DNA of 64,000 nucleotides from Hyphomicrobium sp. (GCA_031365865.1 JANLYX010000018.1:6859-70858); one strand, 5' to 3'. Positions 13,111 to 29,253 are shown, counted from the stretch's first letter. The notes: generated by a model not told the origin, from the letters alone. Made by a program: numbers and translations.

Positions 13111-14257
13111 GAACAGCGACCAAGGCCAACCGGTTTCGTTTATCGATCTTAGAGCCCAACAGGCCCGGATCCGGCCGCAAATCGATGCCGCGATCAAGCG
13201 CGTCCTTGATCACGGCACGTACATCATGGGGCCCGAAGTCGCGGAATTGGAAACGGCGCTCGCACAATTCTGCGGCGCCAAGCACGCTATAACATGCGCC
13301 AGCGGCACCGATGCCTTGCTGATGATCATGATGGCGCGCGGAATCGGGCCGGGCGACGCCATCATCTGCCCGGCCTTCACCTACACGGCAACGCCGGAAG
13401 TGATCGCGCTGCTCGGTGCAACTCCGATTTTTGCAGAAGTCTCGGAAGTTAGTTTCAATCTTGATCCCACGGGGCTTGACGCGGCCGTAAAGGCCGCAAC
13501 GAAAGCAGGTCTCGTGGCCCGGGCCGTGATTGCCGTTGATCTTTTCGGTCAGCCGGCCGACTACGCCGCCATATCGGCGTTCGCAGACGCCCACGGCTTG
13601 TTCGTCATTTCGGACGCCGCGCAAGGTTTCGGCGGCGCTGTCGGCAAGCAGAAGGTCGGAACCTTCGGACTTGCGACCGCGACCAGCTTTTTCCCGGCAA
13701 AACCCCTTGGCTGCTATGGCGACGGGGGCGCGATTTTCACTGAAGACGATGCGCTAGCCGATATCATGCGGTCGATCCGCCTGCATGGCAAAGGCGCCGA
13801 TAAGTATGACATTGTGCGGGTTGGCATCAACGGCCGGCTCGATACGATTCAGGCAGCGATCCTGATCGAAAAACTCAAAATATTCCCTGACGAGATCCGC
13901 GCCCGCCAGCAGGTGGCCCATCGTTATCACGCGGCTTTGGGTTCAGCGGTGCGGGTGCCGAAAATTGCGCCGGGCATGACGTCGGTTTGGGCGCAGTACA
14001 CGCTCGTCATTTCTGACGGCCGCCGCGATGAAGTCGCCCGCAGGCTTTCAGCAATTGGTATTCCGACGCAAATCTATTATCCGCGCGCCCTGCATGAACA
14101 GACTGCCTACAAGCACTGCCCCGTGGCGCTTGGTGGCGTGGCGGTCGCCGAAAGATTGCCCAAGGATGTGCTGAGCCTTCCCATGCATCCCTATCTCAGT
14201 GAGGCGGAACAAGACCGCGTCATTGGCGGCGTTCTCGGTGTCCTTCAAACGGCTTGA
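13088..14257 (+). CDS. wbpE: DegT/DnrJ PLP aminotransferase (WbpE/WlbC type)
   Basis: [43 protein letters not shown]; exact start uncertain. Confidence 0.85.
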
Positions 14258-15486
14258 GGGGCGCTCTCCGTTAGAAGATTGTAGATGGCCTCTGCGCGGT
14301 GCGCGTAGGTGTGAGACGCAATGATGTGATCGTAAGCGTTATCGACAATCTTGTTGCACAATCGTGGATCTTCAAATTGCGCCAGGGCCTCACGGACGTT
14401 GCTCAGGTCGGATTTAATAGGAATGTAATGCTGGCCGGCTGTGAGAATGTCGTTGTAACGGCCTTCGAGCAGAATCTGGCAGGTCTTTTTGCCGATCGCA
14501 TCGAAATGTCTTGAAGAAATAGCTTTTCCATAAACGGCGGGGCGCGGCCGTCCGGCGAAGAAAACGTTTGCGAGTTCTTCAAAGCTGGTTTTGTAATCCT
14601 CAAGAACCTCGAACTTAACAGGGCCTTTTTTGAGAAGCGTCCACAATGCGGCTTTGATCGGCGTCGGCAAAACGCGGGCTGCGCGCCTCAGCACGCTTTC
14701 GTTCTTCAGGATGAACCCGCGGTCTTTGGTTCTGAGGTAGTCGTGAATTTTCTTCATCAAGTCATCATCTGGGCTGATGTACCAACTCCCCGCTTCTGTC
14801 GACACTGTACCGCGGCACGAGCCTAGGAATGCAGACCAGTCGTCGCGCGAGAGGCGGCGATCCTCGCTGATATCGAGCTTGAGGCTCATGGCCAGAGCAC
14901 AGTCCGTGAGCCGGGTAATCATTCGGTTACGGTCGTCGTCGCCAAGGTAAGCCGGATAGCGGTAGCCTTTGACCCCGAGATTGAGCGGACGGCTTTCGGG
15001 ATTTCCGCCAGGTTTAAAAGCCTGGGGGTTGAGGGCGTGGGGAACCGCAACGACCCGGCAATTCGTCGAGGCGTAAAGATACGCGCCCGCTTCGAGCAAC
15101 AATTGGGTCGCGACAATGTCGGCTTTAGCATCGCGCAAAAAGGCGATGCGCTTCTCCATCGAGACATAGGGCGAATTAAATTCGTTGCCGTTGAACACCA
15201 TCAGCTTGCCGCGATTGCGCGCGGCGAGAGCGCTTGCCAAGGGTTGGACGAACTCTAGGGTGTCGCCATTGCAGCTGTGCAAAATGATGACGGCATCGAA
15301 GTTCTTGAGTTTCAATTGAAGGTGTGCCGGCTTCAGACCGAGAATGTTTTCAACGGTTGTGTCAAACAGCGGATTATTGAGAAAAGCATCGCGCCAATCG
15401 TCGTAGTACGAGGCGGTATGGGGGTATGCGAGCACTAGGACGAGGGTGCGTATAGCGCTCGGACGAAGGTGAGTTGCCGCAGGCAT
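14245..15486 (-). CDS. putative glycosyltransferase, CgeB/Glyco_trans_1_2-like family (paralogue 1)
   Basis: C-terminal AISSRHFDAIG.KT.QILLEGRY...HYIPIKSDLSN...HTYAHR, shared with three other ORFs in the locus. Confidence 0.55.
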   Translation of the reverse strand: MPAATHLRPSAIRTLVLVLAYPHTASYYDDWRDAFLNNPLFDTTVENILGLKPAHLQLKLKNFDAVIILHSCNGDTLEFVQPLASALAARNRGKLMVFNGNEFNSPYVSMEKRIAFLRDAKADIVATQLLLEAGAYLYASTNCRVVAVPHALNPQAFKPGGNPESRPLNLGVKGYRYPAYLGDDDRNRMITRLTDCALAMSLKLDISEDRRLSRDDWSAFLGSCRGTVSTEAGSWYISPDDDLMKKIHDYLRTKDRGFILKNESVLRRAARVLPTPIKAALWTLLKKGPVKFEVLEDYKTSFEELANVFFAGRPRPAVYGKAISSRHFDAIGKKTCQILLEGRYNDILTAGQHYIPIKSDLSNVREALAQFEDPRLCNKIVDNAYDHIIASHTYAHRAEAIYNLLTESAPQAV

Positions 15487-15723
15487 TAAAAATCCATCCG
15501 TCGATGCGCGCGAGGTTGATTCCTGAATAGCCCTGTATAGATCACGTCCGACGTTTGAAACTGGTAATTCATGACCTATCCAGTGTAGACACTGGTTATC
15601 GCCTCACGTAGCAGCAGGAGCCGAAACGAACATTGAACTCGCGACGGCAGACGGGCGCTTTCGTGCAAATTACCGCTGCATTGCCGCAGGAAATGAATTG
15701 CCGGGACAACTGAAGGTAAGCCG

Positions 15724-27313: not shown

Positions 27314-27993
27314 CTCGATCATCAATGAGCGACCCAATCAGGATCACGTTTTTCGGGGATTCGATTTGCGTCGGACAAGGTGTTTCGATTTACCGCGGGT
27401 GGGTGACGCGGATCGCACGTGACCTTGACGAGCTCTCTCACAAGATCGGCAGGGATGCGCTCGTCACGAACGCTTCGGTCAACGGGCGGACAACGCGGCA
27501 AGCGTTAGAAGACATGCCCTACAGCGTCCAATCCGCGGGCGTCGATCTGCTGATCGTGCAATTCGGTCTTAACGACTGCAACTATTGGGCGTCCGACAAA
27601 GGCGTGCCGCGTGTCAGTGGCGCGGCTTTTGCGGCCAACATGACTGAGATCATGGAGCGCGGCCGGCGGTTCGGCGCCAAAAAGATTTTTCTTAATACTA
27701 ATCATCCGACGACGCGCACCAAAGATGTATTGCCGGCGACGTCGATCACATATGAACAGAGCAACGCCGAATATAATCGCATCGTCCGGGATCTGGTTGA
27801 AAATGCCGGTCCGGATGTCGTATTCCACGACATCGAAACAATTTTCAACAAGCGGATTGAGAATGGAATTGACTTGGGCACCTTGCTTCTGAAGGATGGC
27901 TTGCATCTCAGCTCGCTGGGTCACGAAATATATTACGAAACGATGGGGCCGTCGCTCAAACGCGCGATACAAGAATTTTCTGAGAAAAATTGA
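27310..27993 (+). CDS. SGNH/GDSL hydrolase-family protein (acylesterase/acyltransferase)
   Basis: FFGDSI (block I), NGRTT (II), FGLND (III), DGLH (V). Confidence 0.85.
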   Translation: MTRSSMSDPIRITFFGDSICVGQGVSIYRGWVTRIARDLDELSHKIGRDALVTNASVNGRTTRQALEDMPYSVQSAGVDLLIVQFGLNDCNYWASDKGVPRVSGAAFAANMTEIMERGRRFGAKKIFLNTNHPTTRTKDVLPATSITYEQSNAEYNRIVRDLVENAGPDVVFHDIETIFNKRIENGIDLGTLLLKDGLHLSSLGHEIYYETMGPSLKRAIQEFSEKN

Positions 27994-28002
27994 GTTCGAC
28001 GT

Positions 28003-29253
28003 ATGACAAGTGCCGCCAATCCTGAAATTGATACGTGGTTTCGGGACTTATCGACGGCGGTGCCGGTGCGTAAACCCGCCAAGTTGAAGATATTGTTTTT
28101 GGCGGATGATCGCCATCCCGCAAACGTCGTGCAGGATCACATCGCCGCGCTGAGCTGGGGCCGGGAACAACAAATCTTCGTGGTCAATCCCATTCATGCG
28201 GGCCTACCGGACTGGTCGTTCTCGAGGAAGATCGATCTCATCCTTATTCATTATTCAATTTTCATTCTGGGCGAGTATTTTCTGCCGCCGCATTGGCGTG
28301 AATTTGTCCGGACGTTTCCGGGTCCGAAGGCGCAAATTATTCAGGATGAGCATCGCCACATCCGGAGAATGCGGCAGCGCATGGCGGATCTTGGCATAAA
28401 GGCGGTATTTTCATCGTTGGAAGTCGGCAATCTGAAAAAAGTTTACGATGGTCCCGACGTTTCCGGCGTGACTTTCTACTCATGTCTGCCGGGCTATGTG
28501 GCTGCGGATTTTAAAACCTGGTCGCCGCCTCCGATCGCGGAACGGCCGCTCGATATCGTCTACCGCGGCCGGGATCTGCCTTTCAAATTGGGGCGGATGG
28601 GGCAAGAAAAACGTGCCATCGGCGAGAAGATGCAGGCGATTTCACAAATATATGGATTGAAGACCGATATCGATTCGACGGAAGACAGCCGAATCTACGG
28701 TCAGTCGTGGTCGCAGTTTTTAATGTCGGGCCGCGCGACACTCGGGGTCGAGGGCGGCGCCAGCATTTTCGATTTTGATGACAACATCGAGCCGGCGATC
28801 GATGCGTTCGTGGGCAATAACCCGCAGGCAAAATTTGAAGACGTCTGGAGTGCCGTCCTCTCGCCTTACGAAGGCAACGTCGTCCACCGCACCATCACAC
28901 CGAAGTTGCTGGAGGCCATCTGCGCCAAGACGGCCCTGATATTGTATCCGGGCCGCTATCGCGGGCTTTTAGAAGCCGGGCGTCATTACATCGCGTTAGA
29001 ACGTGACGGCTCAAATGCCGAGGACGTTGTGCGTCGTATTAGGGATGCGCCGTTTTTGCAAGCACTCGTCGACCGCGCCTATGCGGACATTCTTGCCAAT
29101 AAAACATTATCTATGGATTTCTACGCGACCCATGTCTTGACGGCACTGTCAGGTCTATACCGGCGGTCATTGGCTGGCACGGGACGATTGCTGCGGAGAT
29201 GGCAGATATTGCGTTGGGCGCGATCGTTCATTCCCAAGGACCCGGAGCCTTGA
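28003..29253 (+). CDS. putative glycosyltransferase-like protein (paralogue 4)
   Basis: QDEH, PGYVA, YRGR, EDSRIYG.SW, LGVEGG, ITPKLLE, ILYPGRY motifs. Confidence 0.55.
   Translation: MTSAANPEIDTWFRDLSTAVPVRKPAKLKILFLADDRHPANVVQDHIAALSWGREQQIFVVNPIHAGLPDWSFSRKIDLILIHYSIFILGEYFLPPHWREFVRTFPGPKAQIIQDEHRHIRRMRQRMADLGIKAVFSSLEVGNLKKVYDGPDVSGVTFYSCLPGYVAADFKTWSPPPIAERPLDIVYRGRDLPFKLGRMGQEKRAIGEKMQAISQIYGLKTDIDSTEDSRIYGQSWSQFLMSGRATLGVEGGASIFDFDDNIEPAIDAFVGNNPQAKFEDVWSAVLSPYEGNVVHRTITPKLLEAICAKTALILYPGRYRGLLEAGRHYIALERDGSNAEDVVRRIRDAPFLQALVDRAYADILANKTLSMDFYATHVLTALSGLYRRSLAGTGRLLRRWQILRWARSFIPKDPEP

Follow-up and report, generated by a model that had tools for sequence, protein, structure and literature searches.

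We analyzed a stretch of DNA of Hyphomicrobium sp. (64,000 nucleotides; GCA_031365865.1, JANLYX010000018.1:6859-70858), referred to below as the window, which carries four open reading frames (ORFs) whose products we designate P1-P4. The evidence presented below makes it likely that these proteins are cytoplasmic glycosyltransferases (GTs) which build, and possibly terminate, the chains of a uronamide-rich, probably sulfated glycan exported by an ATP-binding cassette (ABC) transporter. A first-pass annotation, made from the sequence alone, had proposed that the four ORFs encode paralogues of an uncharacterised GT-B-like family supplying the missing chain-building or chain-capping enzymes of the locus. 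All four ORFs are present, with the coordinates and strands listed in Table 1, and this interpretation is supported by our results.

Homology, predicted fold and conserved residues of P1-P4

Pairwise BLASTP comparisons revealed that the homology of P1-P4 is real: the highest scores were those of P2/P4 (34% identity across 377 aa, 207 bits), P3/P4 (31%, 181 bits) and P2/P3 (29%, 163 bits), and the lowest those of P1 with P2, P3 and P4 (22-33%, 53-72 bits). These values, spanning 22-34% identity overall, bear out the initial view of four paralogues with P1 as the most diverged, and the alignment of the four proteins (approx. 370 residues) contains 30 invariant columns. The family is represented in the genome by exactly four copies, all located within the window.

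The annotation had also described an ordered series of motifs shared by all four proteins. This series was found complete, and in order, in P2, P3 and P4. In the alignment P1 lacks the three N-terminal motifs, with GNE in place of QDE, and with (T/P)G(F/Y)V and YR(A/G)R (including the form YRGR) absent in register; it keeps the C-terminal motifs E..R...W..F, TE.G, IS.R.F(D), IL..G.Y, HYIP...D.SN and AY.

In a comparison of 122 family domains, 42 positions proved to be at least 85% conserved. These include (in the residue numbering of P4, used throughout) D78, Q114-D115-E116, Y148, R181, Y187-R188, K203, R230, W236, E250, G252, E304, G317, Y319, H328, D335 and N338, and the polar residues among the conserved positions lie mostly in loops just after beta-strands or at the N-terminus of a helix. 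P1 has exchanged 12 of the 42 for residues of a different kind (among them Q114, D115, G164, Y187 and P300), its only conservative changes being R188K, K203R and E304D; E116, R181, E250, H328, D335 and N338 are retained. In the models described below, R188 and K203 may be the positional counterpart of the diphosphate-binding Arg/Lys pair of GT4 enzymes, and E250 and E304 that of the two Glu residues of the GT4 EX7E motif. The N-terminal domain has a signature of its own (D78, QDE116) and no Gly-rich loop.

AlphaFold2 models of P4 (40-sequence alignment; predicted local distance difference test (pLDDT) 92.6, predicted template-modelling score (pTM) 0.90) and P3 (pLDDT 86.0) both consist of alternating strands and helices arranged in two halves. 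Foldseek searches of the PDB with E<=1e-3 returned 94 matches for P4 (best E=1.4e-7) and 68 for P3, and for both proteins the top 50 were all GT-B glycosyltransferases, mostly retaining GT4 enzymes. The matches included SdgB, BshA, MshA, PimB', TarM, TreT, the T4 alpha-glucosyltransferase AGT, glycogen synthase and SenB (PimB', BshA and SenB being among those of P3). No structure of TagF, a pyruvyltransferase or a 2-epimerase was present in the top 50 of either model. The GT-B fold that had been predicted from motifs was thus recovered for P3 and P4.

In contrast to the GT4 of the same locus, which matches the GT4 profiles PF00534, PF13692 and PF13439 at 1e-28 to 1e-31, P1-P4 gave no match to these three profiles at E<=1. 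The GT4-like structural matches, taken together with the lack of GT4 profile similarity, indicate that the predicted fold of the family is GT-B, yet outside the GT4 sequence family.

The only Pfam model with some affinity to the family is PF13524, which matched P1 at 34.1 bits (residues 319-401; gathering threshold 25 bits) and P2 at 24.2 bits, just under the threshold; precomputed matches to it also exist on some homologues. These matches cover the last approx. 80 residues of the core, in the C-terminal nucleotide-binding half, i.e. less than one quarter of the protein. P3 and P4 matched neither PF13524 nor a GT model of any other kind in the Pfam scan. No full-length Pfam or NCBIfam model was found for P1-P4, and the NCBIfam scan of the four proteins yielded nothing but a chance match to Cas8a1 (E=0.0086).

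When family profiles were compared with PDB sequences, the sole matches were to a short stretch of GT90 enzymes (POGLUT1, POGLUT2 and Rumi; E 0.005-0.8). This stretch, L.P..HYIP(V/L)..D.SN, extends over approx. 40-60 residues, with the best value (E=0.005) obtained for POGLUT1 (5l0r), and none of P1-P4 gave a full-domain match to PF05686 (CAP10/POGLUT). The nearest folds are those of retaining enzymes, but the sole shared sequence motif is one held in common with the inverting GT90 family. Members of the family are named 'hypothetical protein' or, generically, 'glycosyltransferase' in RefSeq and the source records, and our literature search found no paper on the family, so the description 'uncharacterised' can stand.

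No transmembrane segment was detected in P1-P4: the sole hydrophobic maxima coincide with a core beta-strand (the conserved beta-3), and membrane insertion was rejected on this ground. P2, P3 and P4 carry basic C-terminal tails, two of them amphipathic, with a net charge of +4 to +5 (P2 +4, P3 +5), which would fit peripheral membrane enzymes acting on a lipid-linked chain. P3 is distinguished by a long C-terminal extension, which in the AlphaFold2 model (DSSP assignment) forms three long helices (residues 411-461, 473-512 and 515-562) followed by a basic terminal segment. The extension matches no Pfam model and is kept in full-length orthologues of 600-640 aa (45-64% identity). We read the four proteins as soluble or peripheral cytoplasmic Leloir glycosyltransferases; the presence of wzm and wzt in the same locus, combined with the lack of transmembrane segments, fits glycosyltransferases of the ABC-transporter-dependent pathway.

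Subfamilies, distribution and genomic neighbourhoods

A maximum-likelihood tree of the 122 family domains placed each of the four proteins in a clade of its own, with high support in the Shimodaira-Hasegawa-like approximate likelihood-ratio test (SH-aLRT): P1 in a clade of 4 rows (SH-aLRT 100; orthologues in loci L010, L017 and L021), P2 in one of 10 rows (97), P3 in one of 21 rows (95) and P4 in one of 18 rows (99). Since each clade contains orthologues from other taxa, P1-P4 represent old subfamilies and not local duplicates. A recent local duplication, considered as the origin of the four genes, was rejected on the basis of this tree, as the orthologues come from other phyla. Among the sampled loci, only that of the window contains all four subfamilies together. 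The P4 clade has a frequent companion: of the 17 related loci with a P4-clade copy, 16 also hold an SGNH/GDSL gene, as against no more than 7 of the other 50 loci, and in the mapped loci this gene lies immediately upstream of the P4-clade copy.

An exhaustive profile search yielded 3,850 cluster representatives (50% identity) at E<=1e-3, and 2,367 at E<=1e-30. Many of these proteins contain two or three tandem copies, and fusions to GT4 modules, to three GT2 domains with tetratricopeptide (TPR) repeats, and to a radical-SAM domain were found. P0131 (1550 aa) and P0138 (2344 aa) are unusual fusions of this kind, one with a radical-SAM/SPASM domain and one with TPR repeats and three GT2 domains. 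A P4-type module followed by a P2-type module is encoded as a single polypeptide in L009 (a Pseudolabrys protein), P0125-P0127, P0129 and P0130; P0128 is a P4-P3 fusion, and P0179 and P0199 are GT4-P3 fusions.

The family is rare in the genomes surveyed. Of 150 further genomes belonging to the same order, 8 carry it, each with at least two copies, and no carrier was from the family or genus of the window; a phylum-level survey found it in 1 of 400 genomes, a value that is a lower bound, with only four candidates scored per genome. A tblastn search of 72,556 plasmids with P2 gave no match.

We next considered 67 related loci from at least eight phyla (Pseudomonadota, Verrucomicrobiota, Actinomycetota, Acidobacteriota, Planctomycetota, Nitrospirota, Bacillota and Bacteroidota). 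The taxa comprise Alpha-, Beta- and Gammaproteobacteria, Opitutia, Actinomycetota, Acidobacteriota, Planctomycetota, Nitrospirota, Cohnella and Bacteroidota, and the proteobacterial loci include those of three Legionella species, a Coxiellaceae metagenome-assembled genome (MAG) and Rickettsiales symbionts. Two to five family copies lie within approx. 20 kb in 47 of the 67 loci. Cultivable carriers of the family include Pelagibius marinus NBU2595, Bosea spp., Polaromonas aquatica, Rhodoferax lacus and Microvirga puerhi.

The neighbours were counted as loci with a homologue of the given window gene near a family copy. The most frequent were the AsnB-type amidotransferase (46 of the 67 loci), wzt (44), the three epimerases of the short-chain dehydrogenase/reductase (SDR) family resembling WbmF, WbmG and WbmH (41-43) and the UDP-GlcNAc 2-epimerase homologue (39), followed by the methyltransferase encoded at 19331 (32), wzm (29), the SGNH/GDSL protein (23), WbpD and WbpE (16), the sulfotransferase encoded at 25591 (14) and the UDP-sugar dehydrogenase (12). 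A homologue of the window GT4 was present in only 9 loci. The suspected co-occurrence with wbmFGH and asnB, and the link to Wzm/Wzt and uronamide precursor genes, thus hold across the 67 loci, and the genomic association of the family with ABC-transporter uronamide glycan loci is strong.

Gene order is also conserved across classes. At its fullest, in Pelagibius marinus and in one alphaproteobacterial MAG, it reads wzm, wzt, sulfotransferase, methyltransferase-like gene, GDSL, P4, P2, methyltransferase, asnB, epimerases, 2-epimerase, P1; a Rhizobiaceae MAG, Methyloversatilis and Legionella nagasakiensis have variants in which at least one gene is absent or stands elsewhere. The segment running from the sulfotransferase through the methyltransferase-like gene and GDSL to P4 keeps its order in L006, L008 and L010; the methyltransferase-like gene is missing from L014 and L017, and in L012 the three genes are arranged differently. 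Homologues of the sulfotransferase at 25591, the methyltransferase-like gene and GDSL directly precede P4 in Methyloversatilis, Pelagibius, Opitutia and the alphaproteobacterial MAG, and in Legionella nagasakiensis and the Rhizobiaceae MAG the sulfotransferase and GDSL do so, with no methyltransferase-like gene.

In some of the sampled loci an initiating transferase and a single GT4 were found beside the family copies, the former belonging to PF00953 in Legionella septentrionalis and to PF02397 in Cohnella. An initiator, an adaptor and a polymerase form the usual layout of such systems. Three to five tandem family copies were observed in Legionella, in the loci of L. impletisoli (L035, 616-11326) and L. 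septentrionalis (L037, 7308-12327); in the latter, wzm/wzt and a WbqC-like gene precede the copies and a WecA-type initiating transferase gene directly follows them.

Gene content of the locus

The features of the window are summarized in Table 1. Pfam scans covered its principal ORFs between approx. 1.7 and 57.7 kb, and the sole protein matching a classical GT model was the GT4, which agrees with the initial count of only one such enzyme; a glycan locus of about 30 kb thus has one GT other than P1-P4.

Table 1. Coordinates of P1-P4 and of the surrounding genes in the window
Feature	Position	Strand	Description
P1	14245-15486	-	413 aa; most diverged member; GT-B-like; additional insertion of ~43 aa
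P2	15724-17097	+	457 aa; GT-B core (~aa 1-365) and basic C-terminal tail
P3	17111-18958	-	615 aa; core and helical C-terminal extension
P3, GT-B core	17831-18958	-	aa 1-376
P3, C-terminal extension	17111-17830	-	aa 377-615; candidate coiled coil or membrane anchor
P4	28003-29253	+	416 aa; GT-B core and basic amphipathic C-terminal tail
WbpB-like oxidoreductase, WbpD-like acetyltransferase, WbpE-like aminotransferase	11535-14257	+	Pfam GFO_IDH_MocA, Hexapep, DegT_DnrJ_EryC1
S-adenosylmethionine (SAM) methyltransferase	19331-20188	+	Pfam
UDP-GlcNAc 2-epimerase family protein	20274-21320	+	Pfam
Wzm permease and Wzt ATPase	21295-23635	+	Pfam ABC2_membrane, ABC_tran; Wzt at 22175-23635
Sulfotransferase, methyltransferase, sulfotransferase, methyltransferase-like (function unassigned), SGNH/GDSL	23663-27993	+	Pfam; starts at 23663, 24533, 25591, 26453 and 27310, respectively
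Adenosine 5'-phosphosulfate (APS) kinase (cysC)	29199-29966	+	Pfam APS_kinase, E=3.6e-64
Three SDR epimerase/dehydratases (WbmF/G/H-like) and transglutaminase-like protein	30001-34236	-	Pfam
Transglutaminase-like (WbmE-like) protein	31092-32225	-	WbmE role from PMC2615507
AsnB-like, GT4, second AsnB-like, UDP-sugar 6-dehydrogenase, CysQ	34276-41918	-	Pfam; lower coordinates 34276 and 37612 (AsnB-like), 39625 (dehydrogenase) and 41073 (cysQ)
GT4	36491-37900	-	sole classical GT
rmlB, rmlD, rmlA (dTDP-rhamnose genes)	45046-47999		Pfam

The locus carries wbpA/B/D/E/I-like genes, of which the WbpB/D/E-like set would make a 2,3-diacetamido-uronic acid precursor. The WbmE-like protein is very rare: 7 homologues were detected at E<=1e-3 among 5.8 billion proteins, none of them from Bordetella, and none was found in the 67 related loci. 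A DUF2793/SO2946-like protein (42086-44893) is followed by rmlB, rmlD and rmlA and by a GH114 glycoside hydrolase gene (45046-49882). Rhamnose may serve as a primer, or belong to a second glycan.

A complete sulfation module lies within the Wzm/Wzt locus, consisting of two sulfotransferases (PF00685 and PF13469), cysC and cysQ, which encodes a 3'-phosphoadenosine 5'-phosphate (PAP) phosphatase (41073-41918). APS kinase supplies 3'-phosphoadenosine 5'-phosphosulfate (PAPS), the product of the locus is probably a sulfated surface polysaccharide, and it is the joint presence of the sulfotransferases, cysC and cysQ that suggests this modification.

Wzt (486 aa) has approx. 230 residues after its ATPase domain, with a weak match to Wzt_C (E=0.055). 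In the ABC-transporter pathway, a C-terminal extension of Wzt goes with the export of end-capped chains (PMC11231755), and the extension observed here suggests a cap-binding module and hence a terminally modified chain.

Two gene starts call for comment. The GT4 ORF overlaps the upstream asnB-like gene (37612-39570) by 289 nt and its first approx. 95 residues are Ala/Arg-rich and without a domain. Translation probably begins at Met-96 instead (MTRPKLLYLV...). The cysC ORF begins 55 nt inside the 3' end of the P4 gene, and since the APS-kinase domain starts only at residue 83, the real start of cysC is probably located further downstream.

Proposed roles, alternatives and related systems

The role that we propose for P1-P4 can be placed in a familiar pathway. 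A phosphoglycosyltransferase encoded elsewhere would initiate the chain on undecaprenyl phosphate, the single GT4 would probably add a primer or adaptor sugar, and the members of the family would lengthen, and possibly terminate, the chain linked to undecaprenyl diphosphate, which would then be exported by Wzm/Wzt; sulfation, methylation and O-acylation would come afterwards. The donors to which the neighbouring genes point would be N-acetylated hexuronic acids and their C-6 amides, of the UDP-ManNAc3NAcA or UDP-GalNAc3NAcA type, as in the Bordetella O chain.

The catalytic activity, donors, linkage, stereochemistry and division of labour of the four proteins are what we infer here. P4 and P2, which elsewhere are encoded side by side or as one polypeptide, most likely form a two-module pair. 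The approx. 240 residues of long helices make P3 a candidate terminator, length ruler or scaffold; terminating enzymes of the ABC-transporter pathway typically have a coiled coil at the C-terminus (PMC11231755). P1 may be a divergent adaptor or branch transferase, or an inactive partner.

Several observations weigh against this assignment. The Foldseek matches are modest (template-modelling (TM) scores of 0.3-0.5) and their identity is low (8-15%), an hhalign comparison of the family alignment with the locus GT4 gave a probability of 0.45%, i.e. no similarity, and the GT-B fold also serves enzymes that are not glycosyltransferases (2-epimerases and TagF-type phosphotransferases). A contiguous EX7E motif is absent: a helical insertion (approx. 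45 residues, two helices) separates E250 from E304, which lie at a distance of 53 residues. P1, which has lost several family-conserved residues, could be inactive. As regards the donors, the first-pass annotation had named diacetamido-uronic sugars: the link to uronamide genes stands, but the tightest partner is AsnB, and no more than 7-16 of the 67 loci have WbpB/D/E homologues within 10 kb, which indicates that a diacetamido donor is not general. The location of rmlB, rmlD and rmlA just downstream makes dTDP-rhamnose a possible donor too.

It appears unlikely that P1-P4 merely lie at the far edge of a CAZy family already defined (such as GT4 or a CgeB-like group), i.e. are ordinary glycosyltransferases changed by sequence drift only. 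Such an origin would agree with the GT4 enzymes being the nearest structures, with the matches of PF13524, a model of the GT-B clan, to P1 (34 bits) and P2 (24 bits), and with the name 'glycosyltransferase' that some members already bear in RefSeq. However, the profiles that detect the locus GT4 so clearly do not match P1-P4, hhalign found the family and this GT4 dissimilar, P3 and P4 match no GT model, and the family has a signature of its own together with the insertion of approx. 45 residues inside the EX7E region. We regard it as quite unlikely, too, that only some of the copies are enzymes, with P1, and perhaps P3, acting as inactive paralogues in the role of scaffolds or chain-length regulators. 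The 12 exchanged residues of P1 would be explained in this way, and the long helical extension of P3 resembles the domains that serve WbdD and WbbB as scaffold or ruler (PMC11231755); against this, P1 orthologues are 49% identical across classes and keep E116, R181, E250, H328, D335 and N338, and P3 retains the full signature.

The least probable of the alternatives is a protein with the GT-B fold and a non-Leloir activity, such as polyol phosphate transfer (as in TagF), pyruvyl or acyl transfer, or a reaction linked to amidation by AsnB. In its favour, other classes of enzymes also have the GT-B fold, the tightest neighbour of the family is AsnB and not a sugar-nucleotide synthase, and many genes of these loci encode decorating enzymes (sulfotransferases, methyltransferases and SGNH proteins). 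Against it stand the Foldseek results, in which the top 50 were all sugar transferases, with TagF, pyruvyltransferases and 2-epimerases missing from them, and the fusion partners, which are GT4 and GT2 modules. Moreover, several mapped loci are without another chain-extension candidate among their labelled genes; L017, for example, has P1, P2 and P4 but lacks a homologue of the window GT4.

We retain chain-building glycosyltransferases as the favoured assignment of P1-P4. Among GT-B glycosyltransferases the family stands apart as a variant of its own, and it makes a good candidate both for an addition to CAZy and for the polymerases that these glycan loci otherwise lack. With at least 3,850 clusters under generic annotation, and with sets of two to five copies in loci that have few or no other transferases, it offers a concrete, testable candidate. 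More tentatively, we propose as a possibility, rather than as the expected outcome, that this uncatalogued family is a set of enzymes devoted to building the chains of those uronic-acid and uronamide glycans that Wzm/Wzt exports in at least eight phyla; P4-P2 would act as a two-module co-polymerase and P3 as a built-in terminator or ruler, and together they would fill the Bordetella-type missing-polymerase gap, including that of related, here sulfated, polymers.

Hexuronic acids of the 2-acetamido or 2,3-diacetamido type, together with their amides, are the units of glycans in Bordetella O antigens, and on gene evidence such glycans may also be made by Legionella species, Rickettsiales symbionts, marine Opitutales, Accumulibacter and many soil bacteria. 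In the literature we found no biochemically defined enzyme of the ABC-transporter pathway that links sugars of this kind. Assigning the family would probably add a CAZy family, improve the annotation of thousands of metagenomic proteins, and provide enzymes for rare acidic or amidated (here sulfated) polysaccharides; it would bring no new principle, since the fold and the logic of the pathway are familiar.

Among known enzymes, the retaining GT4 proteins (BshA, MshA, PimB', SdgB and TarM) come closest, sharing the two-Rossmann-domain GT-B fold and giving the best structural matches. They would also share the basic pair after the first strand of the C-terminal domain and the two conserved Glu residues, if the positional correspondence proposed above is correct. 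The family differs from them in lacking sequence-profile similarity (8-15% identity), in the insertion of approx. 45 residues that splits EX7E, and in its own N-terminal signature. PF13524 (Glyco_trans_1_2, CgeB-like), the only Pfam model to match the family (in the last approx. 80 residues of P1, P2 and some homologues), has, to our knowledge, no biochemically defined prototype of this kind. With GT90 (POGLUT1, POGLUT2 and Rumi) only the C-terminal stretch is held in common, without a PF05686 match; GT90 enzymes are eukaryotic, luminal and inverting, and act on epidermal growth factor (EGF) repeats.

The closest parallels in genetic organization are WbdA/WbdD, WbbB (GT99/102/103) and ORF7 of Klebsiella O4 (GT137), which are likewise cytoplasmic, encoded beside wzm/wzt, and composed of multiple modules, either separate or fused. 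These enzymes appear to be unrelated to the family in sequence. The long C-terminal helices of P3 and the extension of Wzt recall ABC-dependent O-antigen systems (PMC11231755), although a terminator role is conjecture here. GT137 is reported to have an altered beta-sheet topology and no structural similarity to known GTs (PMC11231755); membership in GT137 was rejected on the fold, as the family matches canonical GT4 structures.

A similar locus is that of Bordetella, whose O chain is a poly-L-GalNAc3NAcA/uronamide and whose genes encode WbmF/G/H, multiple AsnB-like proteins and WbmE (PMC2615507). Both loci have the same precursor and decoration set, i.e. WbmF/G/H-like SDRs, AsnB-like and WbmE-like proteins, and an ABC transporter (PMC2615507), to which the present locus adds a sulfation module of two sulfotransferases, cysC and cysQ.

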